From positions 161,022 through 225,021 of the forward strand of contig CAWHSB010000004.1 in the NCBI GenBank assembly GCA_963831795.1: 64,000 nucleotides of DNA, read 5' to 3'. The translations under genes and the position numbers were made by a program. The notes under the pieces are model-generated. The model worked only from the letters and a program-made list of their open reading frames with translations, did no database searches and was not told the DNA's origin. Position 1 is the first letter of the stretch. Each line of letters starts with the position of its first letter. The DNA is from Terriglobia bacterium. GTDB taxonomy: Bacteria > Acidobacteriota > Terriglobia > Bryobacterales > Bryobacteraceae. Of this stretch, positions 10,477 through 41,963 are shown one piece after another.

Positions 10477-11505
10477 TCAGGGCAACTCGAGGTCCGGGTG
10501 CAACGCCGCGGCTTCGGGCTTGCCAATCACTCCGAGATAGCCTCGAAGCAGGTCCGCGTCCGGAGTTTTGGGATCCAGCGCCAGGTATTTCGCGACATGT
10601 TCGCTCGCTCCGGCGGAATCGCCTTTCGCGTCGAGGATACGGCCCATTACGAATTCGGCTCTTGCGCCTTTGTGGCTCTGGTCGAGTTCGAGGGCCAGCT
10701 TCGCGCTGGCTTCAGCGCCGGCGAGGTCCTTCATTTCGTAACGCGCCACCGCCTGATGGAGGTAGACCTCGGGAAACGTGCGCTTTGGATCGAGCCGGAT
10801 GGCATTATCGGCGGCCGCGGCAGCGCCGGGCCAATCTTTCAACAGCACATCCATGCGTGAGAGCGTGACGTACGAGACAGTCATTTTGGGGTCGGCCTCG
10901 ATCGCATGCGTATAAGCGGCCTTCGCGTCGGCGGGCATCTGCAGCGTCTCGTAAGCGATTCCCAGCGAGTGCCAGCCGCGCGCGAATTTGGGCGCAGCGG
11001 CGACGACGAGTTTGAGCTGAGCCTCGACTTCCGCTAAATTGCCGCTGTCGACGGCCTTCATCGCGGCTTTCCACGCAGCTCGCGCGGAGGGTGGCACGTC
11101 GGAGGCGTTACTGTCGATCGTCCGCGGATCGGCCCCGCGCTTCATGAGGACGAGCGGCGGAAGTTCCTTTGCGCTATTGATGAATCCGCTGAGGTCCGAG
11201 ATGTCGATTGCCGTCGAGACGTAACCGGCGAGCGTGGCCTCAAGACGGCATGTGCGGGTGAGCATGTTGTCGACATCCATGCGCCACAGGTACTCACCCT
11301 TCTTATTGGTGAGCGGGCCGGGCGCCGAGCCCTGGCCATCGCTGCAGAGCCTTTGGATGCCAACGGTCGCCGGTGGAGGCGAGCCGTCGCGCATGGTGAC
11401 CTTGCCGCGGAGGATCAGCTGATAAGTGTCAGCGGCGGCCGGCGTCACCAGCCAGGGCAGGACAGCTGGAATGCAGATGCGGGCAATTGAGCGAAGTAAG
11501 ATCAT
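10477..11505 (-). CDS. Secreted tetratricopeptide (TPR) repeat protein
   Basis: 342-aa ORF with a signal peptide (ICIPAVLPWLVTPAAA). The C-terminal two-thirds consist of TPR-like helical repeats (ARGWHSLGIAYETLQMPADAKAAYTHAIEADP.., AEASAKLALELDQSH..). Confidence 0.7.
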   Translation of the reverse strand: MILLRSIARICIPAVLPWLVTPAAADTYQLILRGKVTMRDGSPPPATVGIQRLCSDGQGSAPGPLTNKKGEYLWRMDVDNMLTRTCRLEATLAGYVSTAIDISDLSGFINSAKELPPLVLMKRGADPRTIDSNASDVPPSARAAWKAAMKAVDSGNLAEVEAQLKLVVAAAPKFARGWHSLGIAYETLQMPADAKAAYTHAIEADPKMTVSYVTLSRMDVLLKDWPGAAAAADNAIRLDPKRTFPEVYLHQAVARYEMKDLAGAEASAKLALELDQSHKGARAEFVMGRILDAKGDSAGASEHVAKYLALDPKTPDADLLRGYLGVIGKPEAAALHPDLELP

Positions 11506-11666
11506 AAGCGCTCCCGGCCCAAATTGAGCCGAAGCACATTATATATGGGAATCGTCAGGGATGCGGTGATATGGATGCGGCGGTGAGAGAGTTCCGTGAC
11601 GGCAGGGTTGCTGTATAATGAGGGAACATCCAACGCAATACGCTGAAATCAGGCGAGTTAAAAAAC

Positions 11667-11759
<93 letters not shown>

Positions 11760-11938
11760 GATTATCAATCTCTTAGGGGTAAGCCTCCCTGGCCTGCCCG
11801 AGGTGAGATTTATATCCCAAACAGAAAAAAGCGCTGGCGCCTGGGCAGGAGCGAAGGCAGCGACCCAGGATTTTTACCGGCTGCGAGACGGCTCAAAGAA
11901 TCGTTAAGATAAACCCGAATCAGACGCTTGCGCCAACT

Positions 11939-12283
11939 TTGAGATGGTGTATGCCGTACAAGTTCTCAGAACTGCGCCGATCAGGGACCCCGCACACGCA
12001 GAGCGAGACGAGTCTGATCGATCTTCTCCTGGCGAACATCCGAATTGCGCGGGCACTGCTTGATGCGGCCAGGGTGTCCCGCAATCCGACTCGGAGATCC
12101 ACAATCCTTTGCACTGTTCGACGGGCAATTCTTTCCATTCGATATGTTGCGGAAGAGATCGAAGACCTGAGCGCGCGGGCAGAAATTGAAGAGAGCGCCA
12201 ACAGACTGGAAGTCGAGTCTAGTTCGATTTCAAACTCGCCAAACCGGCTTGATCTTTATCTGAGCCACTCGCAAAAATCATGA
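11939..12283 (+). CDS. Hypothetical helical protein (low-GC islet)
   Basis: 114-aa ORF whose stop overlaps the next gene's ATG. I recognise no family, and coding status is uncertain. Confidence 0.3.
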   Translation: MRWCMPYKFSELRRSGTPHTQSETSLIDLLLANIRIARALLDAARVSRNPTRRSTILCTVRRAILSIRYVAEEIEDLSARAEIEESANRLEVESSSISNSPNRLDLYLSHSQKS

Positions 12284-13119
12284 CCTCGTTGAAGGAACAT
12301 CTTCGGGTCATCTATTTTCGATCCAGGATCTGCCGTCATATGGCGCGATGGCTGATACGCGGTAAACGTTTGCCAATCGATTTTTCACATTTTGTCTCCC
12401 TTCGAGACGACATTATAGGTCCGGTGGACCGGGACGAGGCCTTGTTCCTGATCGGCCTGACGCGGATTCTCTGTCCCCAAACGATTGTCGAGTTCGGATT
12501 CCTGACAGGTCAGAGCGCGCTCAATTTTCTGCTGGCGGCCCGTCCGGATTGCCAGGTTTTCAGTTACGACATCTCCGACAGAGCGGAGGACATTGCGCAG
12601 CGATGCCTTCGCCAATTCAGGAATTTTCACTTCATTAAAAAATCGCAGGACGATTTTTCGCCGTCCGATATCGACAATCGAAAGATTGACCTTTGCTTTC
12701 TCGATGCCTCGCACGATTGTTCGCTCAACCTCAGTACCTTTGACCTGATCCGCCCCCACCTTTCCGAAACAGCGGTTTTTGCCGTCCACGACACGGGCGT
12801 CTGGCATCGGAAGTTTTTCACAGCCGATCACCACGCCTTCACCTGCTCCAGTCTGGGCAGGAAGACGGGCCGGTGGATCGACGGAGACCGGTACCTGCAA
12901 GCGGTGACGGAGCGGCTTTTTGTGAATACCTTATTGCTCAACTGTCCCGATTTTTCCCAGATCCATCTTCACAGCGCCAATACATTGCGTAACGGCATAA
13001 CCCTCCTGCAAAGAGGAGCGCCCCTTGTCACCGAACCGGCGCTGGAGAAGAACATGATTGAGGACAACGCCTTCCTGACGTCTCGAATTGGGCAAACCGA
13101 AAACGTTGCGTCTCCATGA
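12280..13119 (+). CDS. Class I SAM-dependent methyltransferase (Methyltransf_24-like)
   Basis: 279-aa ORF. IVEFGFLTGQSALNFLL (motif I-like) is followed by VFSYDI.., CFLDASHDCSL and AVFAVHDTG. G+C is visibly lower than in the flanks. Confidence 0.6.
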   Translation: MTSLKEHLRVIYFRSRICRHMARWLIRGKRLPIDFSHFVSLRDDIIGPVDRDEALFLIGLTRILCPQTIVEFGFLTGQSALNFLLAARPDCQVFSYDISDRAEDIAQRCLRQFRNFHFIKKSQDDFSPSDIDNRKIDLCFLDASHDCSLNLSTFDLIRPHLSETAVFAVHDTGVWHRKFFTADHHAFTCSSLGRKTGRWIDGDRYLQAVTERLFVNTLLLNCPDFSQIHLHSANTLRNGITLLQRGAPLVTEPALEKNMIEDNAFLTSRIGQTENVASP

Positions 13120-13355
13120 GCGGTCGCCAGCCCGACCGGGAACTGTCGGGAATGTACGATCTCTAAACCACCCGGACAATTCGAAGACGGGTCCTGGATC
13201 ACTTTCCGGCGGTAGAACCCATACTTCGACAATCGGCAACCCGCCGCGCCGCAGCTCTGTTTTGGGACCGTCCGTTCCCGATCTTCTTGACAATGTTAAA
13301 CGCGTGTTTTAATCTTCTGTTTGAACCTGACTCCCGACTGGCGATAAGCACCGTT

Positions 13356-15123
13356 ATGCGCATCAAAGCTGCAACCCGAATTGGAAGCAAGCCCAAGGGA
13401 CCGTCCGCGGCCGGGCTTCTCCCGCTGCTCAAGCCGTACAGGCTTCTGATCGCCATACTGGTCGCCTTGACCGTTGCCGGCAACGGTCTGAATCTGGTCG
13501 TGCCGAAGCTGATCTCGCACGCCATCGACGCCTACACGCAGGGCCGCTTCGTCCTGCATACCGTTGTTCTGGAATTTCTGGTGGTCGGGATTCTGGTGTT
13601 CGTCCTGACTTACGGGCAGAGCCTGGTTCAGACCTGGGCATCGGAGCGCGTAGCGAAGGATCTTGCGGACGCGCCTGGCGGCGAAGATTTCGGACCAGTC
13701 GTTCGCGTGGGTGGAGCAACTCACGCCGGCCAAGCTGCTGACGAATCTGACGTCCGATGTGGACGCGGTCAAGACTGTTCGTGTCGCAGGCCATCGCCTC
13801 GATCATTTCTTCGCTTTTCCTGATCGTCGGCGCCAGCGTTCTTCTGCTCTCGATCAACTGGCGGCTGGGGCTCGCGATCCTGGGCGTCGTTCCGTTCATC
13901 GCCATTACGTTTCAGCTGGTGCTGCGCAAAGGTGCGCAACCTTTTCAAGCAAGCGCAGGAAGCGATCGACTGGCTGAATCGCGTGATCAACGAAAGCATC
14001 CTGGGCGCCTCGCTGATCCGGCTGCTCAACACGCAGCAGATCGAGTATGAGAAGTTCCTGCAGGCCAACGCGCGAGCGCAGAGATCTGGGCCTCAGCATT
14101 CTGCGTCTGTTTGCCAGCCTGATACCGGCCATCACGCTTGCCACCAATATCGCGACGGTGATCATTCTTGCGCTGGGCGGCCATTTCGTCATCGCCGGCA
14201 GCATGACGCTGGGCGATTTCACGGCCTTCAATTCTTACCTCGCGATCCTGATTTTTCCGATCATCCTCATCGGATTCATGAGCAACGTGATCGCGCAGGC
14301 GTCGGCCTCGTATATGCGCATTGGCGCCGTTCTGAGCGCTCCCGAAGAGGACGAGGCGGCCAGGTTGTTACGGAGTTGCGCGGCGACGTCGGCATGAACG
14401 ATGTCTCCTGTCCTTCGGCGACAAGATGGTACTGAAGAACGTTTCGTTCACCGCCCCGGCCGGAACGAGAACGGCCATCATCGGACCCACGGCCGCCGGC
14501 AAGACGCAGCTGCTGTACCTGCTGATCGGACTTCTGAAGCCTACATCCGGAACCGTCACCTACGACGGCGAGCCGATCGACGCTTACGACAAAGAGGCGC
14601 TGCACCGGCGCGTCGGATTTGTCTTTCAGGACAGCGTGATGTTCAATCTGACGCTGCGCGAGAACATCGCTTTCAGTACCAGCGCCGGGCAGCAGGACAT
14701 CGGAAAGGCCATCGCGACGGCGGAACTGGACGACTTCGTCGCCGCGTTGCCGGAGGGTCTGGAAACCGTGGTTTCGGAGCGGGGAACCAGTCTTTCCGGC
14801 GGACAGAAACAACGCGTCATGCTGGCGCGGGCGCTGGCGCTGAATCCCCAGGTGCTGCTGCTCGACGATTTCACGGCGCGCGTGGATGCCAACACCGAGC
14901 GGACCATTCTGGAGAATGTTCACAGAAATTATCCCGGCATCACTCTGATCTCGGTGACGCAGAAGATTGCGTCGGTGGTGGATTACGACCAGATCATTCT
15001 TCTTGATGGAAGGCGAGGTGCTGGCCATCGGAACTCACGAGCCAGCTGATGGAGACATCGCCCGAATACGTCCAGCTCTACGATTCGCAGCGGAGCACGA
15101 GCCACTATGAAGTACACGCTTGA
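13356..15123 (+). pseudogene. ABC exporter (fused TMD-NBD, MdlA/MsbA-like), multiply frameshifted
   Basis: A continuous ABC exporter sequence is obtained only by hopping among ORFs 13287.., 13663.., 13757.., 13932.., 14047.. and 14426... Frame changes lie near 13663, 13776, 13930, 14085, 14360, 14408, 15005 and 15041. NBD motifs are still perfect (GPTAAGKT, LSGGQKQR, LLLDD). Confidence 0.8.
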
Positions 15124-16867
15124 GACCGGCGAAAGGCCCCCGGCAGAAGCGATCGCTGCGGGAATACGGGAGCAAGTTTCTGCCGCTGTTCGCGACCGAG
15201 AAGGGTCCCTTCGTCGCCGCGGTTGCCGCCATCCTGCTCAGTTCCGGCGCCACGCTGGTGGCGCCGGTCATGATTGTTCGGACCATCGATACCGACATCC
15301 GGCTGAAGAATACGCACGGCTTGCTGATCTCTGCGCTGCTCGTGCTGGCGATTTATGTCGCGGGCGCGGTTGCGAGCTACGTCCAGGTGCGGACCATGGG
15401 CGGCGTCGGCCGACGGGTGCTGTTCCACTTGCGCAACGCGCTCTTTCTGAAGCTGCAGGATCTGCCGGTGGCCTTCTTCAATCAGAACAAGGCCGGCGAT
15501 CTGATCTCGCGCTTGAACAACGATACGGACAAGCTGAATCAGTTTGTCGCTCAGGCGCTGATGCAGTTTGTGGGCAGCGTCTTCCTGATCACCGGCGCCG
15601 GCATATTTCTCATGAGCCTGAATATCAAGCTGGGCATGGCCGCGCTTCTGCCCGCATTCGGGGTGCTGCTTCTGACCCGAGGAACCTCCGCCTGGATCAA
15701 GCGCAAGAACCTGGGAAGCCTGCAGGCGCTGGGCGGAATGAGTTCGGAGATTCAGGAGAGCCTGAACAACTTCAAGGTGATCGTGGCGTTTAACCGAATG
15801 GATTATTTTCGGCGGAAGATTCGAGACCGCCAACGAGAAGAACTTCGCCGCTTCCGTGTCGGCGGGCTTCGCGAATAACATCTTCATGCCGCTGTACGGC
15901 CTGGCTTCGCACCTGGCGCAGTTGATCGTGGTGGCTTACGGAATCTACGCTCATCGAGGCCGGGCAGATGACGGTCGGACTGCTGATCGGGTTCCTGCTC
16001 TACGTGAACAGTTTTTATGGTCCGATGCGGCAACTGGCCACGGTGTGGTCGTCGTTCCAGCTGGCGATGGCGGGGCTGGACCGGATCTCGGAAGTGCTGG
16101 CGCTCGAATCGAATATGCCGGTGCTCGCCGCGGTGACACGGAAGGTGAATCGGTGCTTTCATTCCGGCACGTCTGGTTCCAGTATCCGGACGGCAAAGAG
16201 GTTCTGCGCGATGTCAGCTTCGAGATGGAGCGAGGGAAGGCATATGCGCTGGTGGGTCCGACCGGCGGCGGCAAGACCACCACGGCGAATCTGATGGCGC
16301 GCCTCTACGATCCGACGGAAGGATCGGTTCTTCTGAATGGCCGCGACATCCGCTCGTATACCGCCGAAGAGCGCGCGCAAAAGATCGGGTTCATTCTGCA
16401 GGATCCGTTTCTGTTCAGCGGCACCGTGCGCGACAACATCGTCTACGGAAATGAGCCATACAAGAATTACTCCAGCCAGCAGCTTGGCCGAGGTTCTGGA
16501 GGAGGCCAATCTTTCGAGCTTGATTTCGCGCTTTCCCGAAGGACTGGACACCGCCGTCACCACCAGCGGCAACAGCATCAGCCTGGGGCAGAAGCAGCTG
16601 ATCGCGTTCATGCGCGCCGTTCTGCGGAAGCCGGAGTTGCTGATTCTGGACGAGGCGACGGCGAATATCGACACGGTGACCGAGGAGCTTCTGGAGGAGA
16701 TTCTCGACAAGCTGCCGGCCACAACCACGCGGGTGATCATTGCGCACCGCCTGAATACGATCGACAACGTGGACCAGATCTTTTTCGTGAATTCGGGAGA
16801 GATTACGCTGGCGGGCTCCATGGAGCATGCGGTCGACATGTTGATGCACGAGAAACGCGCCAGCTAG
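15107..16867 (+). pseudogene. ABC exporter (fused TMD-NBD, MdlB-like partner), multiply frameshifted
   Basis: The product is spread over ORFs 15120.., 15856.., 15968.. and 16337... Frame changes lie near 15819, 15949, 16130 and 16485. Motifs GPTGGGKTT, SLGQKQLIAF, LILDEATANID and AHRLNTI are intact. The exact 5' end is uncertain. Confidence 0.8.
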
Positions 16868-16880
16868 CCAGCCCGCGATC

Positions 16881-17340
16881 TTACCCGCGACGATCGTATC
16901 GACCGGATTGATGCGGCTCGCGTGCCGCACGGGGCAACCAGACTGCGGCGAACGCAATGGCCAACAACAGAGCCGGCGTGACCGAAAAGACCTCCGCGTC
17001 ATGCCGCCGGTGGCCGTGGAATTGGCTCGCCAGCACACGTGAAAGGACGAGGGCCGCAGCGATCCCGATTGCAACGCCAGGCGCATACCCTGAGAGACCA
17101 CGAGATTCCTGACCCGAGCCGGTTCCGAGCCCAGCGCCATCCGGATGCCGATTTCCGGCGTCTGCTGCTGAACTGAATAAGCCACGAGTCCATAGATGCC
17201 GATCGCCGCGAGGCGTAGCGCGCAACCTCCGAAAATTGAGAGAAGGAGAGCGACGAAATTCTCTCGGCGATCGACTGGGAAAGCGTATCGTTCACGGTGC
17301 GGATGCTGGCCACCGGGAGGCCGCCGTTTCCGACCCGCAA
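16881..17340 (-). pseudogene. C-terminal remnant of an FtsX/MacB-like (ADOP-type) permease, 5'-truncated and frameshifted
   Basis: Joining three minus-strand frames gives ..LPVASIRTVNDTLSQSIAERNFVALLLSIFGGCALRLAAIGIYGLVAYSVQQQTPEIGIRMALGSEPARVRNLVVSQGMRLAL..GIAAALVLSRVLASQ..DAEVFSVTPALLLAIAFAAVWLP..ASRINPVD. Only about the last 150 aa of a normally ~800-aa protein remain. Confidence 0.75.
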
Positions 17341-17439
17341 CGCATATTGAATCGAAGCGCCAGGCGGAGTCGGCGCGGTTTGACGTCTACTGCATCGCTA
17401 ACCGCCCGAAACCCGCCTCAGGATAACATCGAATGAAGC

Positions 17440-18390
17440 ATGATCCAGACCTTATTCGGCTCGGTGGAACAGGAGCCGACGTTACTCGATAAATTGAAGA
17501 GCGGCGTCCAGAAAACGCGCGAAGGACTCGTCTCGCGCCTGGAAGACGTCATCTCGGGCCGCAAGGAGATCGATGCGGACCTCCTCGACGAACTGGAATA
17601 TACGCTGATCAGCGCGGATATCGGGGTTGCCACGACCAATGAAATCCTCGATCGCATCCGGGAACGTGTGGATCGGAAGCTGGTAGGCGATGCGACGGAA
17701 CTCCGCGGCCTGATCCGCGAGTACCTGCTCGAAGTGCTGCAGGCGAACGATCGGCCGCTGGCCTACGTGGATGAACCACCCGCGGTGATCATGCTGGTCG
17801 GCGTCAACGGGGCGGGGAAGACCACGACGATCGGCAAACTCACCTCCCATTTCAAGGCGGAAGGACACACGGTGCTGCTGTGCGCCGCCGATACCTTCCG
17901 CGCCGCCGCGATCGAGCAGCTTGAAGTCTGGGGCGAGCGCACGGATACGCGTGTGATCCGCCAGAAGACCGGCGCCGATCCGGCCGCGGTCATGTTCGAC
18001 GCGCTGCAGGCGGCGAAGGCGGCCCGAACCGACTACGTAATCATCGACACCGCCGGCCGCCTGCAAACGAAAACCAATCTGATGGCGGAACTGGAGAAGA
18101 TGCGCCGGACGGCCGCGCGCGTAATCCCGGATGCGCCGCACGAAGTTCTGCTGGTGCTGGACGCAACCACCGGGCAAAACGGTCTTGAGCAGGCGCGCAA
18201 ATTCACCGAGACATCGGGCGTGACAGGCATCGTCCTGACAAAGCTCGATGGCACCGCGAAGGGTGGCGTAATTGTCGCCATCGCGCGCGAACTTGGCTTG
18301 CCGATCCGGTTCGTCGGGGTCGGCGAAAAGGTGGAGGATCTGCTTCCGTTCGACCCGGAAGCGTTCATCGATTCGCTGTTTGAAATATGA
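17440..18390 (+). CDS. ftsY: Signal recognition particle receptor FtsY
   Basis: 316 aa with SRP-GTPase motifs [21 protein letters not shown] and [10 protein letters not shown]. It is intact. Confidence 0.95.
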
Positions 18391-19507
18391 GCGCTGAGCC
18401 TGTTCGCGCCGGGCACATGAGCGAGGCCCTGGCGCTCGCGCGGAGAGGCATCGCCCTGGCGACGCCGAACCCCATGGTGGGCGCTGTGATCGTGAACGGC
18501 GGAGAGGTTGTCGGCCGCGGCTTTCATACCTGGGACGGCCTGAAGCACGCCGAGATTCTGGCGCTCGAAGAGGCCGGTGATCGCGCTCGCGGCGCGACCG
18601 CGTACGTTACGCTCGAACCCTGCTCGCATACCGGGCGCACCGGTCCTTGTGCCGAATGCCCTGATCGCGGCGGGTGTGGAGAAGGTGGTTGCGCCGTCTT
18701 CCGATCCGAATCCGCTCGTTGCGGGCGAAGGATTCCGGAAGCTGCGCGCCGCGGGCGTTCAGGTGGAGATCGCCACCGAGTATCAGATCGAAGCGGAGAA
18801 GCTGAACGAGCCCTTCTTCCATTTCGTCCGAACCGGCCGGCCGCTCGTGATGCTGAAATCCGCTTCGACGCTTGACGGAAAAATCGCAGCTCCGGAAGAC
18901 AACAGCGGCTGGATCACCAGCGAACGCGCGCGGGCGCACGTGCAGGAGCTTCGGCACGCGTCGGACGCTGTGATCACGGGTATAGGTACGGTGCTCGCCG
19001 ACGATCCGCAAGTTGACGGATCGCAGCGGGCTGCCGCGCGTTCGGCCATTGATTCGCGTGGTGCTGGATTCGACGCTGCGGCTGCCGCTCGAGTCGAAGC
19101 TGGTTCAGACGGCTGAGAACGATCTGCTGGTGGCCGGGACATCCGCCGCTTCGGCCGAGCGGCGGCGTGCGCTGGAGAATCGCGGCATCGAGGTGAAGCT
19201 CTTCGACGGACCAAGAGGCCGGGTCGATATTCGCGACGTCATCGCCCTTCTGGGTGAGCGCCGGTGCTTGTCGGTAATGATCGAGGCGGGCAGTAAAGTG
19301 AACTGGGCCGCGCTCGAATGCGGCGCGGTGGATAAGGTGTTTCTCTACTACGCGCCGAAAATCCTCGGAGGCCTGCAGTCCCTGCCGATGGCGGGCGGCA
19401 TCGGAAAAATGCGCAGGGCGGACGCGATTCTGCTGGAACGCACCGCGCTGCATATGATCCCGCCGGACGAGTTTGCCGTCGAAGCTTACGTGCGGAAGGA
19501 CATCTGA
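18387..19507 (+). pseudogene. ribD: Riboflavin biosynthesis deaminase/reductase RibD, interrupted by two single-base frameshifts
   Basis: Three ORFs (18387.., 18577.., 19013..) together give a complete RibD. The deaminase part reads ..[29 protein letters not shown]|[11 protein letters not shown].., and the reductase part reads ..TSERARAHVQELRHASDAVITGIGTVLADDPQ|LTDRSGLPRVRPLIRVVLDS... The junctions lie near 18657 (gaa-t-gcc) and 19012 (caa-g-ttg). The ATGA start overlaps the ftsY stop. Confidence 0.85.
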
Positions 19508-36977: not shown

Positions 36978-37298
36978 ATGACCGACATCGCGGGTATCTG
37001 CCGGGAAATGGGGATCCTCGATCGTCCGGTCATCGGCCGAACAGGTTTCGCCGGGAAGTTCGATCCGAAGATACAATGGAAGCCCGACCCGGCAAGCCCT
37101 GGACGCGGCCGCGCGATTCCGCAGAAAGGATCATCCGGGCCTGCTGCTCCGCCGACCACGCAAAGTTCCGAGCTTGACGCCGAAGGGCCGAGTTTCATAC
37201 CAGCCTTGCGCGAGCAAGCCGGACTTAAACTCGAATCTGCCAAAGGCCCTGTCGCGATGCTGGTGATCGATCACGTCGAACGGGCGTCCGAGAACTGA
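36978..37298 (+). pseudogene. C-terminal fragment of a TIGR03435-family (Solibacter-type) protein
   Basis: ..LDRPVIGRTGFAGKFDPKIQWKPDP..GPSFIPALREQAGLKLESAKGPVAMLVIDHVERASEN* is the conserved C-terminus of the TIGR03435 family. No matching N-terminal half lies upstream. Confidence 0.75.
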
Positions 37299-37463
37299 TA
37301 TGAGGGGGGCGGCGCGCGGTTACATGATCGGCCGGGAGCTGTCTCGGCATGGGCGGCTCGGCGGGCCTTCATCGCGATCAACGTATCGCGGTTTTACCTG
37401 CGCGACGTAACCGTTCCATGGCGAATTCGGCTGCACGGGAATTTATCAATATCCGTCATCTGT

Positions 37464-38113
37464 TTGGGGAAAACGCCGATGAGCACCGCCGATCTTCCGA
37501 AGATCGCAAGTGTCGCGGGACCAAGTCGTGGAATGAAACTCGCCCTGGGGGCCGCTATGGTAGCGGTGGCGACATCGATCATTATTGACGTCCTGCGTGC
37601 GCCCGCCGTGCGGGCTCAGGATGCAACAGACTGGCAGACCAGGGCCGGAGGCAGGATGGCATTCGATGTGGCGTCCGTCAAGCTGAGCAAACCCGACACA
37701 CTCTTCCCGCCGACTTTCCTCTCGAGTCCGGCGATGCGTTCACAAATCTGCAAATGCAACCGCCCAGCGGGCGCCTCTCTCGGGCTACATTAGCTTCGCC
37801 TGCAAGCTGCATGCAGCCACTGGCAGCTGGACCCTACGACGTCGCATCTCCCGAAATGGGCGACGCAGACCGCTTCGAAATCCAGGCTCGCGCGCTGGCG
37901 AACACCACGAAGGATCAGATGCGCCTGATGATGCAGTCGCTGCTTGCGGAACGCTTTCAGCTGGCCGTACACTTCGAAATGCGCGAGATTCCCGTACTCG
38001 CGATGACTCTGATTAAACTCGGCAACCCGGACCCGGCCTGCGTCCACACGACCTTGGACCGCCATGCGATGTGCCTCCGAGCGTCGGAAGACAAGCCGAT
38101 AAGCGGTGACTAA
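37464..38113 (+). pseudogene. N-terminal part of a second TIGR03435-family gene, frameshifted and cut off by the IS630 element
   Basis: A signal peptide is followed by FDVASVKLSKPDT.. then (other frames) FPLESGDAFTN.., GYISFACKLH.., ..DADRFEIQARALANTTKDQMRLMMQSLLAERFQLAVHFEMREIPVLAMTLIK. It ends at the IS boundary (~38112). Confidence 0.75.
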
Positions 38114-39377
38114 GTCATCGCTTCCAAAAATACACACACGTATTGTTTGGTTGAAAAATGCGTTAACGTATGGCATCTTGAGCGGGGGTATTCATATTGC
38201 CACGCTCAAGCCCATACTCTATAGAATTATCTGCGCAAGAAGAGCGCGAGCTGCTCCGGCGGGCCGCGAAATATACGTTACCGTATTTTGAGGTCATGCG
38301 CGCCAGAATGGTGCTTCTCGCTGCCGATGGACTGTCCAATGATCAGATCGCCTCCCGCCTTGACACTCGTCGCGAAGTCGTTAGCATGTGGCGTAAACGC
38401 TTCTTCGAGGAGCGCCTGGCCGGACTGGACGAGCGTTCCCGCCCGGGTCGTCCCCGGGTTTTTCCCCCCAGAACTGGTCGTTCAGATTAAGGCGCTGGCT
38501 TGCGAGTTGCCGGCCACTCATGGCGTTCCCCTCTCCCACTGGAATACCCCAGACATAGCTCGTCAGGTCTGTAATGCCGGTTTGGTCGCCACTATCTCGG
38601 GAAGCACCATTTGGCGATGGCTCCATGAAGACGCCATCCGCCCCTGGTACCACCGCAGCTGGATCTTCCCCCGAGACCCCGCCTTCGCCGTCAAGGCTAA
38701 CCGGATCCTGGACCTGTATGAGCGCTCCTGGAATGGTAAACCCCTCAAAAACGATGAATTTGTCATCTCAGCCGATGAGAAAACCAGCATCCAGGCTCGC
38801 CGGCGCAAGCATGAGACTTTGCCCGCCGCGCCCAAGCGTCCGATGCGCGTTGAACATGAATATGGTCGTTGCGGAGCCTGGGCCTATATCGCAGCTCTCG
38901 ACGTTCATCGTGCTCGCATCTTTGGCCGCTGCGAAACCACCACTGGCATCGCACCCTTCCATCGCCTGGTTGAGCAAGTCATGACTCGCCCTCCCTATAA
39001 CGACGCCCGCCGTGTCTTTTGGATCGTCGACAATGGGAGTTCGCATCGCGGTAAGGCTTCCGTCGCCAGACTCAAGCAGCAGTTCCCGCGCCTGACCCTC
39101 GTTCATGGGCCGGTCCACGCCAGTTGGCTCAATCAGGTCGAGATCTACTTCTCCATTGTGCAGCGAAAGGTCCTCACCCCGAACGACTTCACCGGCCTCG
39201 ACCAACTCGCCGAACGCCTGCTCGACTTCCAATACTACTGGGAGGCAACCGCAAAACCCTTCGAATGGAAGTTCACCAAAGCCGATCTTGCGGCCCTCCT
39301 CACCAAGCTTTCGGCCCACGAAAACGTGCCGGCTTGACCGGTCAACAATACGTTAGTGAACTTCTGAACTGGAGTAC
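38113..39377 (+). mobile_element. IS630-family insertion sequence (~1.27 kb)
   Basis: It carries a DDE transposase gene. Imperfect terminal inverted repeats share the core ACGTATTGTT/AACAATACGT (38139.. and 39344..). TA dinucleotides flank both ends (38111-12, 39378-79). Boundaries are good to a few bp. Confidence 0.8.
38197..39337 (+). CDS. IS630-family DDE transposase, two overlapping frames (orfA HTH 38197..38490; orfB 38288..39337)
   Basis: The orfA HTH part is ..DGLSNDQIASRLDTRREVVSMWRKRF..RPGRPRVFPP. Continuity into ..ELVVQIKALACE.. requires a +1 shift in the run GGG-TTTTT-CCCCCC (38456..38469). The DDE triad context is SADEKTSIQ, IVDNGSSH and SWLNQVEIYFS. Confidence 0.85.
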
Positions 39378-39449: not shown

Positions 39450-40385
39450 ATGCCGCCGATCGTCTTTTTGGCCAGCAGCATCAAAAACAGAGCCCTCGTG
39501 GATGCTGTCGCCCGACAGTTGAATCATTGCGCGACTCCACGCGTGTGGATGGATGACCAGGCGGCGATTGGATCCTATATTCTCGACTGGGTTGCAGCTC
39601 GGGCACGCGAGAGTGATTTTGGTGTCTTTATCTTTGCGCCCGATGAGCGTTGGGGCAATCAGGTCAACGGCAACGTACTTCTGGAAGTCGGAGTATTTGT
39701 TGCTTGCCTGGGACTCGATCGATGCCTGATTATGACTGCCAGGGGAATGGAGTTGCCATCGGATCTTAAAGGCATATTGACGGCCGAGTACGATCCTGCC
39801 GCGTTCGCTTCACAGGGCGACGGCGCTCTCGATTCGGCAATCGCGGCAATAGCAGACGCAATCGCCACACGCCGCAGCCTCTCACAATTGATTTGCGGTC
39901 TGTGGATGGAAGAGAAGGATCGTTTTCGGTCCGAAGGGTCCTTGTCTCTCGTCGAGTTCTACATACTAAGAGGAGAATTAAAAGTGCGTGGCCGCTCGTA
40001 CGATAGTCGGGGAGAGGAAACTCTGATGTGGCCGGACACGGTTGATTACTCTCATGTGAGGGAAGAACGCCGCGAGGTGTGGCATACTTTCGACGCCCGG
40101 TTCGGGCGGTTCGGACGGAACGTCGCGGTCGGCGTCACATGCTTCTCTTTCGATAGCAATTATAAGACGGGTTCGGGGCATTTCGTCGTTTCGGGAGAGG
40201 GTCGGATTCAACAGGGGCTTATCGCGTTTACGCTTCGGCGGATTACCCCGGCCACCGCAACGGGAGCTGCGGGCGAAAGTGAAGAACTCTCAATCGATAA
40301 CAAGGAAGGTTGCAGGAGTTTTATCCAGGAATTTCTCGCGAGGCGCTTTGATTCGCGGGATCAGCCGAAGCCAATTTCTTCCTGA
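39450..40385 (+). CDS. TIR-like (PF10137 / Cap12-PycTIR-type) domain protein with uncharacterised C-terminal domain
   Basis: 311 aa. Residues 1-115 (IVFLASS..DFGVFIFAPDE..NVLLEVGVFVACLGLDRCLIMTARGMELPSDLKGILTAEYD) match the recalled PF10137 consensus (..dfavvLltpDD..NVvfElGyfvgaLGrerv..elPSDlsGv..). I could not assign the beta-rich residues ~135-311 to any family. G+C is visibly lower than in the neighbours. Confidence 0.7.
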   Translation: MPPIVFLASSIKNRALVDAVARQLNHCATPRVWMDDQAAIGSYILDWVAARARESDFGVFIFAPDERWGNQVNGNVLLEVGVFVACLGLDRCLIMTARGMELPSDLKGILTAEYDPAAFASQGDGALDSAIAAIADAIATRRSLSQLICGLWMEEKDRFRSEGSLSLVEFYILRGELKVRGRSYDSRGEETLMWPDTVDYSHVREERREVWHTFDARFGRFGRNVAVGVTCFSFDSNYKTGSGHFVVSGEGRIQQGLIAFTLRRITPATATGAAGESEELSIDNKEGCRSFIQEFLARRFDSRDQPKPISS

Positions 40386-40559: not shown

Positions 40560-41963
40560 GTGAAACTCAGGCCGGTAACCCGCGTATCTTTTCTGCTGTA
40601 CATGATGGCGGCTTCGCTGTCGGCGCAGACCATTCTAAACTTCAATGGCGCCAATGGATCGAACCCGCAATCAGCGCCCATTCAGGCCGCGGACGGAGCG
40701 CTTTATGGCGTAACGGCAAACGGAGGCGCCCACGGAGGGGGAACAATTTTCAGAATTGCGGGCGGCACGCTGACGACGATTTACAGTTTTTGCTCAAAAT
40801 CCGAATGTCAAGACGGCGCCACGCCGGTTGGCGGGCTTCTCCAGGCGGCCGACGGTGGCATCTGGGGGTCAACACGGGGTTTGGAGAGTTCCCCGTCCAG
40901 CTTTCCCTCTACCCTATTTGTCGTCACACCTTCGGGCAGGTTCCGGCAGGACGGGATTCTGACTCAGGACAACTACGGCATCGTAGTCACAGCAAGCCCC
41001 ATACAGACCGCTAATGGAAACATTTACTGGATAGGCGCACTTGGAGGGCCACACAATGCGGGGACAATTTTCAATCTTACAGAAGGAGGCGCTTCTCCGG
41101 TTCATCTCGGCTTTTGTGCGCGGATCGGTTGCCCGAGCGGCGCGGAACCGGCAGGCGGCCTGGTCGAAGGACCGGGGGACAATGTTTACGGCGCGACCTA
41201 TCGCGGCGGGTCCCCGGAATCCACAGGCGACGGCGGTACTGGCTTCGGCACGATCTTCCGTGTCAGTCCCGACAGTAAGCTGACGACGATCTACACCTTT
41301 TGCCCTCAAGCCGGCTGCGCGGACGGCTGGGGACCTGTGGGAACCCTCGTCCGGGCGGCGAACGGGGACCTTTACGGGTTAACCCAGCTCGGCGGAACCG
41401 GGAATGGCACGGTCTTCAAAATCACGCCCGCCGGCGCACTCACGACGCTGCACAGTTTCGCGGGTCCGGACGGCGCGTCACCTAACGCGCTGATTCAAGG
41501 CTCGGATGGGAACTTTTACGGCACTACAAAGTCCGGCGGAAGCGGCTCTTTGGGTACGGTCTTCAAGATCACTCCGGACGGCACGCTGACAACGTTATTC
41601 AATGCAAACGCAAGTGTCGGGTCTCCCACCGGACTGGGGCAGTATACCGACGGTAAATTCATTGTGTCCGGGGCTGGCGGCGGGACTCACGGCGCCGGCA
41701 CGATCTTCGTTCTGGATGAGGGTCTCGGTCCGTTCGTGAAAGCGCAGCAAGCCTTTGGCGGCGCGGGCGCGGCCGTCACAATACTGGGCACGGGTCTTAC
41801 TGGCGCCACCAGTGTTACGTTTAACGGCACAGCGACCGTCTTCGACGTGGTTTCGGATTTCGAAATCACGACGACAGTGCCCGTCGGCGCAGGCAGCGGA
41901 ACCGTCCAGGTGGTCACCCCAGGCGGAACGCTTTCGAGCAACGCGCCGTTCACGGTGCAGTAG
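40560..41963 (+). CDS. Secreted GloVer tandem-repeat (choice-of-anchor) protein with C-terminal IPT/TIG-like domain
   Basis: 467 aa with a GTG start after AGGGAG and a signal peptide. It has ~8 repeats of the form G..YG.T..GG..G.GTIF+I.P.G.LTT+++F. The C-terminus GAAVTILGTGLTGATSVTFNGTA..VQVVTPGGTLSSNAPFTV is IPT/TIG-like. Confidence 0.75.
   Translation: MKLRPVTRVSFLLYMMAASLSAQTILNFNGANGSNPQSAPIQAADGALYGVTANGGAHGGGTIFRIAGGTLTTIYSFCSKSECQDGATPVGGLLQAADGGIWGSTRGLESSPSSFPSTLFVVTPSGRFRQDGILTQDNYGIVVTASPIQTANGNIYWIGALGGPHNAGTIFNLTEGGASPVHLGFCARIGCPSGAEPAGGLVEGPGDNVYGATYRGGSPESTGDGGTGFGTIFRVSPDSKLTTIYTFCPQAGCADGWGPVGTLVRAANGDLYGLTQLGGTGNGTVFKITPAGALTTLHSFAGPDGASPNALIQGSDGNFYGTTKSGGSGSLGTVFKITPDGTLTTLFNANASVGSPTGLGQYTDGKFIVSGAGGGTHGAGTIFVLDEGLGPFVKAQQAFGGAGAAVTILGTGLTGATSVTFNGTATVFDVVSDFEITTTVPVGAGSGTVQVVTPGGTLSSNAPFTVQ

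Follow-up and report, generated by a model that had tools for sequence, protein, structure and literature searches.

The gene at 39450..40385 of the window (the whole stretch of 64,000 nucleotides that was analysed) is intact and likely encodes an NAD-destroying immune "suicide" enzyme, in which a Cap12/PycTIR-type TIR domain is joined to a predicted beta-barrel of an undescribed family. The barrel recurs on several other kinds of effector domain and is probably the sensor of the trigger of the TIR enzyme. The features of the gene are as follows:

39450..40385, plus strand: complete gene of a two-domain protein (TIR plus beta-barrel), 311 aa from ATG to TGA, taken from the open reading frame listing
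39462..39794, plus strand: Cap12/PycTIR-type TIR domain (aa 5-115), assigned with PF10137, PADLOC models and Foldseek
39684..39686, plus strand: codon of Glu79, the candidate catalytic glutamate, which aligns with SfSTING E84
39795..39866, plus strand: long connecting helix between the TIR and barrel domains (aa 116-139), from the AlphaFold model (helix 116-140)
39867..40382, plus strand: C-terminal domain of an undescribed family (aa 140-311), from AlphaFold, Foldseek and the lack of a Pfam match
39897..39917, plus strand: GLWMEEK, the predicted first barrel strand with the motif G-x-W-x-E-x-K (G150, W152, E154, K156), from conservation among 17 members

All peptides quoted in the original prediction were exactly present in this open reading frame. 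The protein aligns over its whole length with three relatives at 42-67% identity, many positions in both domains are invariant among its relatives, and an identical 311-aa protein is found in a second public assembly, which derives from an independent sample. A scan for promoters and terminators around the gene gave nothing better than shuffled sequences.

A Pfam search bore out the assignment of the N-terminus to PF10137. Residues 5-115 match the CAP12-PCTIR_TIR profile over positions 2-118 of 119 (E 4e-19, 69.2 bits, cut-off 24.7), and the PADLOC models for CBASS TIR effectors and for PycTIR match the same domain with E values of 3e-20 to 4e-17. The top PDB matches obtained with Foldseek were the TIR halves of the TIR-STING structures 9lmq, 9lmr and 7un8 (E 5e-8 to 8e-6), while a HMMER comparison of the full protein with the PDB yielded the TIR halves of Cap12 and PycTIR only. 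A Thoeris ThsB-type TIR was considered and rejected, PF13676 scoring 16.7 bits against a cut-off of 28 and a ThsA-like gene being absent nearby.

Glu79, which had been put forward as the candidate catalytic residue, is in place: it falls in an NVxxExGxF motif, is aligned with SfSTING E84 and is invariant across four full-length relatives. In SfSTING, E84 is the catalytic residue, and the residues listed for the NAD pocket and catalysis are F6, S10, W33, R78, N80, E84 and D110 (PMC9402430). In the window protein F6, S10, W33, N75 (equivalent to N80), E79 (E84) and D105 (D110) are kept. The equivalent of R78, which contacts the NAD phosphodiester in SfSTING (PMC9402430), is Asn73, and a family-specific NGNV motif takes the place of RDNV. 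Because of this replacement, the activity or the substrate of the TIR domain could differ.

The C-terminal half had originally been described as unplaceable in STING, SAVED, cNMP-binding or any other family. By sequence this description stands: no matches to Pfam, NCBIfam or PHROG were obtained for the C-terminal 172 aa, and none of 17 barrel members could be assigned to a Pfam family at E<=10. With PADLOC only a marginal match to the CBASS '2TM' effector was seen (E 0.055), and HMMER searches of the PDB with the barrel profile (A3) and with the distant relative P0038 returned chance matches only. By fold, however, the domain can be placed. AlphaFold modelled it on its own with a pLDDT of 84.9 and a pTM of 0.82, and the predicted order is a short helix, then nine strands that form an up-and-down beta-barrel (aa ~150-264), and finally a helix at the C-terminus (aa ~285-303), which amounts to a calycin-like barrel with Cap15/S-2TMbeta as its nearest neighbour. 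The best Foldseek match overall was an S-2TMbeta (Cap15-type) protein in BFVD (E 2.7e-5, TM 0.57); within the PDB, lipocalins and nitrophorin were best (TM 0.45-0.49, E ~1e-3), and anticalin complexes occurred among the matches. The signature of lipocalins is a G-x-W that opens strand A. Across the 17 diverse barrel members the W of the first-strand motif is invariant, with a conservation of at least 90% for its G, E and K, and conserved polar residues alternate along the barrel strands (W-x-E-x-K and R-x-R-x-Y). According to the model, the barrel is calycin/lipocalin-like at the level of the fold, without membership of a sequence family.

An exhaustive profile search for the barrel among 1.84 billion representative proteins returned 29 matches, four of which (P0026, P0027, P0032 and P0034) were discarded as repeat proteins with spurious matches in multiple stretches. 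Pattern scans of 185,579 species genomes of GTDB gave nothing for the two-domain clade and, for the three-domain clade, only generic AAA_28 proteins that all lack the barrel; a pattern scan of IMG/VR gave no match. The fusion partners of the barrel are the PF10137 TIR, TIR_2, a third TIR-like domain, SIR2, DUF4062 and two TM helices, the last in P0038, where an N-terminal hydrophobic region that by eye comprises two TM helices is followed by the barrel. Many barrel proteins also carry a C-terminal AAA_28 P-loop domain, so that the barrel is the middle domain of these effector-barrel-AAA_28 relatives, and the two-domain barrel proteins are well conserved though they have no NTPase at all. In the literature on TIR plus lipocalin, PF18153 and TPR-S conflict systems no description of the TIR plus barrel architecture was found. 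Reuse of one barrel across death effectors is the pattern expected of a shared sensor, and this shuffling among TIR_2, SIR2, DUF4062 and 2TM effectors strengthens the earlier suggestion of a sensor module in the C-terminal half. We consider the barrel probably to be the sensor; because it is the middle domain in the three-domain relatives, it might instead be a coupling or oligomerisation module.

The 2TM element is described as obligate in the S-2TMbeta/Cap15 family, the barrel of which binds cyclic dinucleotides (PMC12657218). Kinship with this family was assessed with the VnOptE sequence from the Panoptes supplement and with an OptE-family profile made from a 116-sequence OptE alignment. 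PF18153 (Cap15_CD_rec) recognises VnOptE with an E value of 2e-19 and recognised 0 of the 17 barrel members, even at E<=10. In hhalign the barrel profile A3 reached non-significant E values of 0.028 against VnOptE and 0.19 against the OptE-family profile, and reciprocal hmmsearch between the barrel and OptE was non-significant as well. Even so, A3 consistently aligned with one and the same part of the OptE proteins, their C-terminal barrel region (~30 homologues by hmmsearch, again non-significant); this and the marginal PADLOC '2TM' match point weakly towards a Cap15-type barrel. The solved Cap15 structures (7N34/7N35) were absent from the top 50 PDB Foldseek matches of the barrel, where lipocalins were found instead. 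As every sequence and profile test failed, membership of the Cap15 family was rejected, and the resemblance was retained. Nucleotide binding by the barrel is accordingly put forward only as an analogy, since the Cap15 profile tests fail and solved Cap15 lies outside the top 50.

The surroundings of the gene contain the following features:

37754..38113, plus strand: fragment of a truncated TIGR03435/DUF3738 gene immediately upstream (positions 50-113 of 241 in the TIGR03435 profile; PF12543)
38113..39377, plus strand: IS630-family insertion sequence of 1265 bp, from the NF033545 transposase, DDE_3 and an inverted-repeat search
40560..41963, plus strand: unrelated downstream GloVer tandem-repeat protein with a TIG domain (TIGR03803, E 1.4e-67; PF01833)

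These flanks, IS630 and TIGR03435 fragments upstream and GloVer (TIGR03803) downstream, agree with what had been read from the sequence before. The IS630 has imperfect terminal inverted repeats and a TA target duplication at 38111-12 and 39378-79, its transposase is split into two frameshifted open reading frames (NF033545), and its boundaries agree with a difference of 1267 bp from the IS-free allele of the second assembly. It occupies the spacer between the TIGR03435 fragment and the TIR gene. The original prediction also held that the IS630 had truncated the TIGR03435 gene, and this part has to be withdrawn: in the IS-free allele the fragment ends at the same stop codon, 69 bp before the TIR gene begins, so the insertion is not the cause of the truncation. 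The IS630 is a later insertion and lies outside the TIR-barrel system. The gene had further been described as visibly AT-richer than its surroundings; the lower G+C content is real but modest (55.1% versus a window mean of 59.2%, SD 2.4, which corresponds to the 5.8th percentile). Its GC3 is 0.587, compared with 0.67-0.78 in the neighbours, and both of these lowered values would fit horizontal acquisition.

That no cyclase or partner gene is visible holds here and in related loci. Within +/-6 kb of the gene there is neither a cyclase nor a SMODS/CD-NTase, and no conserved neighbour, cyclase or AAA_28 partner was found in about ten related loci with flanking DNA, most of these flanks being short. 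In an all-against-all BLAST of the open reading frames of 11 loci the barrel gene itself was the sole shared gene, and a search of all open reading frames in the related loci with the AAA_28 profile revealed no partner. The surroundings of relatives are of mobile or defence type: an IS-rich region, a plasmid-like contig that carries Rep3, an integrase and a ParA-like gene, and a position beside a SIR2 defence-like gene. A TPR-S protein is encoded upstream of P0022 and has no conserved counterpart in the other three-domain loci.

To the following reading we give about an even chance: the window protein would be a single-gene or genetically unlinked abortive-infection effector, a ligand-gated TIR NADase with a calycin-like barrel as its regulator or sensor. 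The Cap12/PycTIR-type TIR domain would be an NAD+ glycohydrolase that has no activity on its own and is switched on by the packing of TIR domains against one another, Asp105 of one subunit completing the Glu79 site of the next, as happens in filaments of TIR-STING. In the barrel, the conserved residues W152, E154, K156, R180, R182, Y184, H212 and D215 would line a cavity for a small polar ligand, which is most plausibly derived from a nucleotide. Binding or loss of the ligand would then switch the oligomeric state, with the long connecting helix relaying the change, and the outcome would be phage defence. A wider and decidedly tentative proposal is that the barrel represents a new class of cytoplasmic small-molecule receptor, Cap15-derived or convergent, which fires TIR, SIR2, DUF4062 and 2TM effectors without a dedicated cyclase. 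It might respond to a housekeeping or phage-altered metabolite or to the loss of a constitutive ligand (Panoptes-type inverse signalling), and in the three-domain relatives the AAA_28 NadR-like P-loop domain might make or consume the ligand.

Alternatively, the protein could be a CBASS/Pycsar-type effector whose signal is made by a CD-NTase, cyclase, mCpol or DAC from another part of the genome, so that it eavesdrops on or backs up another signalling system. PF10137 TIRs are typical cyclic-nucleotide-activated effectors, the best structural neighbour of the barrel is a Cap15-type cyclic-dinucleotide receptor, and there are reports of rare non-membrane fusions of the Cap15-type barrel (beta-PNP) next to minimal DAC cyclases (bioRxiv 10.64898/2026.08.10.743972). 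Known systems, however, form compact operons, whereas a cyclase or shared neighbour occurred in 0 of about ten flanked loci, and sequence does not support Cap15 family membership; we regard this explanation as unlikely. The same lack of a signal generator in all examined loci would suit a barrel that is not a small-molecule receptor at all and either recognises a phage protein directly or acts as an autoinhibitory or oligomerisation scaffold, AAA_28 being the real sensor in the three-domain relatives. The middle position of the barrel in effector-barrel-AAA_28 proteins and the ability of calycin barrels to bind proteins, as in the anticalin complexes among the Foldseek matches, point in this direction. 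Conserved polar residues that alternate along the strands (W-x-E-x-K, R-x-R-x-Y) are, on the other hand, as expected of a lined cavity, and the two-domain proteins are conserved though they have no NTPase, which leaves the non-receptor role somewhat less likely still.

Two further explanations dispense with defence. The TIR-like domain could be a barrel-regulated metabolic enzyme that processes nucleosides or nucleotides or takes part in NAD signalling, since nucleoside 2-deoxyribosyltransferase-like hydrolases such as MilB have the TIR fold too (PMC9402430), the R78 equivalent is Asn and the gene has ordinary genes around it in the window. Such a role fits poorly with a distribution as sparse and patchy as 29 matches in 1.84 billion representatives and none by pattern scan in 185,579 species genomes and IMG/VR, with fusion partners that are all of death-effector types, or with contexts made up of mobile elements and no conserved operon, and it appears improbable. 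The gene might also be a decaying remnant that at present has no function and was left behind where genes are decaying, between IS630 and pseudogene fragments of TIGR03435. A full-length frame, the retention of all motifs of both domains against relatives at 42% identity and the identical protein in an independent sample make this very improbable.

The known switches of TIR NADase effectors are STING, SAVED, cNMP-binding and CARF domains and partner proteins. In the gene described here an undescribed and very rare barrel module stands in the switch position of a predicted TIR NADase, and this barrel has been exchanged between five or more kinds of effector domain with a signal generator adjacent in none of the examined loci. 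Should the barrel prove to be a receptor, knowledge of its ligand would uncover a new immune signal or else a means of detecting infection without a cyclase, and Cap15-like barrels would not be confined to membrane effectors. The question can be tested directly, because the protein is small (311 aa) and soluble and a clear catalytic control (E79A) is available.

Among known systems, Cap12 TIR-STING (SfSTING, PDB 7UN8; 9LMQ/9LMR) provides the best PDB match to the TIR half by sequence and structure. Both proteins begin with a PF10137 TIR of comparable size and continue with a helix and a C-terminal regulatory domain of ~170 aa, with ~310 aa in total, and they have the catalytic Glu and most NAD-pocket residues in common. 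The Foldseek alignments to TIR-STING span only ~150 columns, and, unlike in Cap12, the C-terminal half is a predicted beta-barrel instead of STING and RDNV is replaced by NGNV. The NCBIfam Cap12 equivalogs, for which the cut-off is 450 bits, scored 42.5 and 31.9 bits and covered aa 3-157 only. Membership of CBASS Cap12 was rejected, there being no STING or SAVED Pfam match, a predicted barrel fold and no adjacent CD-NTase. Pycsar PycTIR and Pucsar PucTIR likewise share the PF10137 TIR NADase effector (PADLOC PycTIR E 4e-17; PDB 8jsj E 0.002). In these proteins an N-terminal cyclic-nucleotide-binding domain precedes a C-terminal TIR and the cyclase is adjacent (bioRxiv 10.64898/2026.08.12.744502), whereas the window protein has the reversed domain order, another sensor fold and no adjacent cyclase. 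With its TIR at the N-terminus, no cNMP-binding match and no cyclase nearby, it was not assigned to PycTIR. Lipocalins and calycins (nitrophorin 4, nitrobindin) resemble the modelled barrel in the short N-terminal helix, the G-x-W strand A, the up-and-down antiparallel barrel and the C-terminal helix; unlike in lipocalins, the conserved interior residues are polar or charged instead of hydrophobic, the protein is cytoplasmic and enzyme-fused, and there is no sequence-family membership. The predicted barrel exceeds that of Cap15 in size, with nine strands and a C-terminal helix (~170 aa versus a 122-position model), and is fused to a TIR instead of 2TM, with no CD-NTase, mCpol or DAC adjacent. 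As modelled, it resembles Cap15/OptE/PanE (S-2TMbeta, PF18153) in being a small soluble barrel with a G-x-W-x-E/G first strand and a terminal G-[YF]-[YF]...G-R-[IV]-x-F hairpin, and its relative P0038 has the same 2TM-plus-barrel architecture as these proteins.

The gene lies on the forward strand, and both the ORF and the peptides originally quoted for it agree exactly with the translated sequence:

39450..40385, + strand, TIR-barrel gene, ATG-to-TGA ORF of 311 aa

The TIR part of the protein is ordinary. Its residues 5-115 match PF10137 (CAP12/Pycsar effector TIR domain) in Pfam (E 4e-19; 69.2 bits, gathering score 24.7), and the PADLOC models of CBASS TIR effectors and PycTIR match the protein at E 3e-20 to 4e-17, as the original prediction had proposed for the N-terminus. 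The closest solved relatives by sequence are the Cap12 TIR-STING 7un8 (E 3.9e-5), 9lmq (2e-4) and the PycTIR 8jsj, of which the TIR parts alone align. Likewise, the best PDB matches of the full-length AlphaFold model (pLDDT 78) are the TIR halves of 9lmq, 9lmr and 7un8 (E 5e-8 to 8e-6, ~150 aligned columns). In the Cap12 protein SfSTING, F6, S10, W33 and N80 form the nicotinamide/ribose pocket, E84 is catalytic, D110 acts in trans and R78 contacts the phosphodiester (PMC9402430). Sequence alignment to the PDB chain (numbering offset 8, checked at R78, N80 and E84) equates the pocket residues with F6, S10, W33 and N75, E84 with E79, and D110 with D105; the sole departure among the mapped residues is R78, which is Asn73 in our protein. 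E79, D105 and the motif N-G-N-V-L-x-E-x-G-x-F are invariant in four full-length relatives. As the pocket residues, E79 and D105 are kept, the earlier choice of Glu79 as candidate catalytic residue is supported, and judged by its residues the enzyme looks competent. The NGNV of this subfamily stands against RDNV in most PF10137 proteins, three-domain relatives included, and it is possible that substrate or product is shifted relative to SfSTING.

The C-terminal half had been considered unplaceable in described families, and so it remains: residues 140-311 (172-aa query) had no match in Pfam, and the NCBIfam Cap12 equivalogs, at 42.5 and 31.9 bits, stayed below their cut-off of 450 and covered only residues 3-157. 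When modelled alone with AlphaFold from a four-sequence alignment (pLDDT 84.9, pTM 0.82), the domain showed a short helix, then nine consecutive antiparallel strands and, after a loop, a long helix at the C-terminus. Foldseek against the PDB retrieved nitrophorin 4 and other lipocalins (TM 0.45-0.49, E ~1e-3), with nitrobindin and avidin lower down. The domain is an undescribed family with a predicted calycin-like fold. Its first strand reads G-L-W-M-E-E-K (W invariant and G, E and K at least 90% conserved in 17 diverse members), and a G-x-W start is the hallmark of lipocalins. Conserved polar residues alternate along the strands (W152-E154-K156 and R180-R182-Y184), which suggests that they share one face, plausibly that of a putative polar cavity. 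The first-strand counterpart in the Panoptes effector VnOptE is G-T-W-E-G-E (PMC12657218 supplement). P0009, a PF10137 protein sharing the TIR only, has a different beta-rich C-terminal domain with a G-A-W-E-G start and no Pfam match, which may be a second, independent lipocalin-like sensor on this TIR.

A word-indexed search of 5.8 billion proteins returned only three full-length relatives (67%, 42% and 42% identity), all others sharing the TIR alone. Exhaustive HMMER with the barrel profile gave 29 proteins at E<=1e-3 among 1.84 billion cluster representatives; four of these, repeat proteins that matched weakly in several stretches, were spurious. No barrel turned up when 185,579 species genomes and IMG/VR were scanned by pattern; the family is rare and to date comes essentially from metagenomes. 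The barrel is joined to a PF10137 TIR in several relatives, to TIR_2 in P0017 and P0036, and in P0015 to a third TIR-like domain matching a CBASS TIR effector model, while the hydrophobic N-terminus of P0038 reads as two transmembrane helices, the Cap15 architecture. Three-domain relatives begin with a PF10137 TIR, SIR2_2 (P0023) or DUF4062 (P0030), continue with the barrel and end in an AAA_28 P-loop domain. The sharing of one module among alternative NAD-consuming or membrane effectors classically marks a regulatory or sensor domain in conflict systems. Neither the TIR-barrel architecture nor its SIR2, DUF4062, 2TM and AAA_28 relatives were found in Pfam, NCBIfam, PADLOC, PHROGs or the searched literature. 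The gene call of the relative P0002 (274 aa; L001 9860-10825) probably lacks part of the N-terminus: the frame stays open further upstream, and with this extension it aligns with our protein at 66% identity over 305 aa; a member of its cluster (P0041) has 307 aa.

The IS630 noted upstream and the GloVer gene noted downstream are both present, the transposase being split over two frameshifted ORFs and the GloVer protein being a TIGR03803 repeat protein. The upstream features are:

36978..37298, C-terminal piece of a TIGR03435/DUF3738 gene
37754..38113, N-terminal piece of a TIGR03435/DUF3738 gene
38113..39377, IS630 of 1265 bp from an inverted-repeat search, with TA duplicated at 38111-12 and 39378-79

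Positions 36978-38113 form a small gene-decay zone immediately upstream of the TIR gene, in which the N-terminal piece may continue the overlapping ORF 37464..37793 via a frameshift. An identical 311-aa protein is encoded in an independent assembly (Logan, run ERR12040025), in the order TIGR03435 fragment, two small ORFs, TIGR03435 fragment, TIR gene and GloVer gene, without the transposase. There, the second fragment stops 69 bp upstream of the TIR start codon, and the spacer is longer in the window by 1267 bp, exactly the IS630 plus the TA duplication. The IS-free allele with the same fragment end and this exact difference indicate that the IS630 hit the stop-codon TA of an already truncated fragment, so that the view that it had truncated the TIGR03435 gene is wrong; the insertion is recent and polymorphic. 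The lower-GC segment with the TIR gene is a candidate for having removed the 3' part. The gene had been noted as AT-richer, and its G+C is indeed lower (55.1% against a window mean of 59.2%, the 5.8th percentile among equal-sized windows), although the drop is only modest; its GC3 is 0.587, that of the neighbours 0.67-0.78, and the spacers on either side of the gene have 44-46% G+C. The lowest-GC stretch of the window (52-53%) is at 11450-13200 and may be another acquired or decaying segment; there and just beyond lie:

12280..13119, Methyltransf_24 gene
13287..13823, ABC_membrane fragment
13932..14435, ABC_membrane fragment, which with the preceding one looks like a broken ABC transporter gene

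No cyclase or CD-NTase is present among the genes within ~6 kb on either side, as first reported; these include a membrane transporter, an Fe-S protein, an AraC/GyrI regulator, an acyltransferase and TilS. The loci of the window gene, its three close relatives, seven metagenome sequences and the 2TM and three-domain relatives were compared, and none of those collected contained a cyclase or CD-NTase. When the ORFs of 11 loci were compared all against all by BLAST, the sole gene shared between loci was the TIR-barrel gene itself, and the AAA_28 profile detected no AAA_28 gene either in the window or in the collected loci. The P0002 gene sits in an IS66, IS4-like, resolvase and DruA region. On a 133-kb contig a relative is flanked on one side by an M15 peptidase, a subtilisin-type (S8) peptidase ORF and a sigma-54-type activator (the last two by eye) and on the other by a contractile-tail-like cluster. 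Downstream of the TIR-barrel gene of L007, an AAA ATPase, a small ORF and a phage tail-sheath-like ORF (13278-18460) by eye resemble an extracellular contractile injection system cluster. A partial TPR-S protein (L007 3-1067, - strand) lies 8.5 kb from that gene and has a ~115-aa segment in common with the barrel-containing ORF L009 327-1262 (35% identity); if the segment makes up the N-terminal domain of that ORF's product, the same effector domain would pair with TPR-S or barrel. A TPR-S (PF20308) 'sensor' repeat protein (L013 2-922) ends 18 bp upstream of P0022 (TIR-barrel-AAA_28, 940-2406), and the two could form a two-gene system; this pairing is absent from the other three-domain loci (L014-L016). 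In L011 (4996-7194), P0038 comes after an HTH_36 protein and before an ORF of 60 aa and a SIR2 defence-like protein (PADLOC SIR2 E 5e-13), possibly a small defence island or multi-gene system. The contig of P0023 (SIR2-barrel-AAA_28) looks plasmid-like, carrying a Rep3 initiator, an integrase of phage type and a ParA-like (CbiA) gene (region L015 1148-8586).

We propose the window protein as a predicted TIR effector of abortive infection that carries a new regulatory module. NADase activity would need TIR-TIR packing, in which D105 enters the E79 site of a neighbour, by analogy with TIR-STING, TIR-SAVED and PucTIR (PMC9402430 for SfSTING; bioRxiv 10.64898/2026.08.12.744502 for PucTIR). The barrel would control this packing through a small polar ligand, probably nucleotide-derived, that it binds or lets go, and the result would be NAD+ depletion and abortive infection. 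We give this mechanism as a whole about an even chance. What the analysis shows is that the PF10137 TIR is intact and keeps its catalytic residues, that a long helix joins it to a calycin-like barrel predicted with confidence, that this barrel recurs with other death effectors, and that none of the collected loci has a linked signal generator. Alternatively, the effector may heed the signal of a cyclase encoded elsewhere, which we consider rather unlikely, and a barrel that senses a phage protein or merely scaffolds oligomers appears slightly less likely again. An enzyme without a defence role is improbable beside the recurrence of the barrel on death effectors, and a dead remnant, given the full-length frame and the conserved motifs in both domains, is the most improbable of all.

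Cap15, OptE and PanE barrels bind cyclic dinucleotides (PMC12657218; bioRxiv 10.64898/2026.08.10.743972). PF18153 (Cap15_CD_rec) detects VnOptE at E 2e-19 and matched none of 17 barrel-family members even at E<=10. With the family profile, hhalign gave E 0.028 against VnOptE and 0.19 against a 116-sequence OptE alignment, and hmmsearch aligned ~30 OptE homologues over the same C-terminal barrel region with insignificant scores; the reverse search with an OptE profile gave only scattered chance matches. Membership of the Cap15 family was therefore rejected. The isolated barrel had one marginal PADLOC match, to a CBASS '2TM' effector model (E 0.055). A solved Cap15 structure was absent from its top 50 PDB Foldseek matches; the best BFVD match is an S-2TMbeta/Cap15-family protein (E 2.7e-5, TMq 0.57, 164 columns; runners-up 7e-3 or worse). 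The Cap15-type barrel has been described as 'obligately' fused to 2TM (PMC12657218), and rare barrel-PNP fusions occur beside minimal DAC cyclases (bioRxiv 10.64898/2026.08.10.743972); a report of TIR or SIR2 fusions was not found in the searched literature. The family is very rare and the finding directly testable. By analogy, the barrel may resemble the Cap15 receptor barrel in its working, possibly through a distant relationship, and the TIR-barrel protein challenges the view of Cap15-like barrels as receptors of membrane effectors only.
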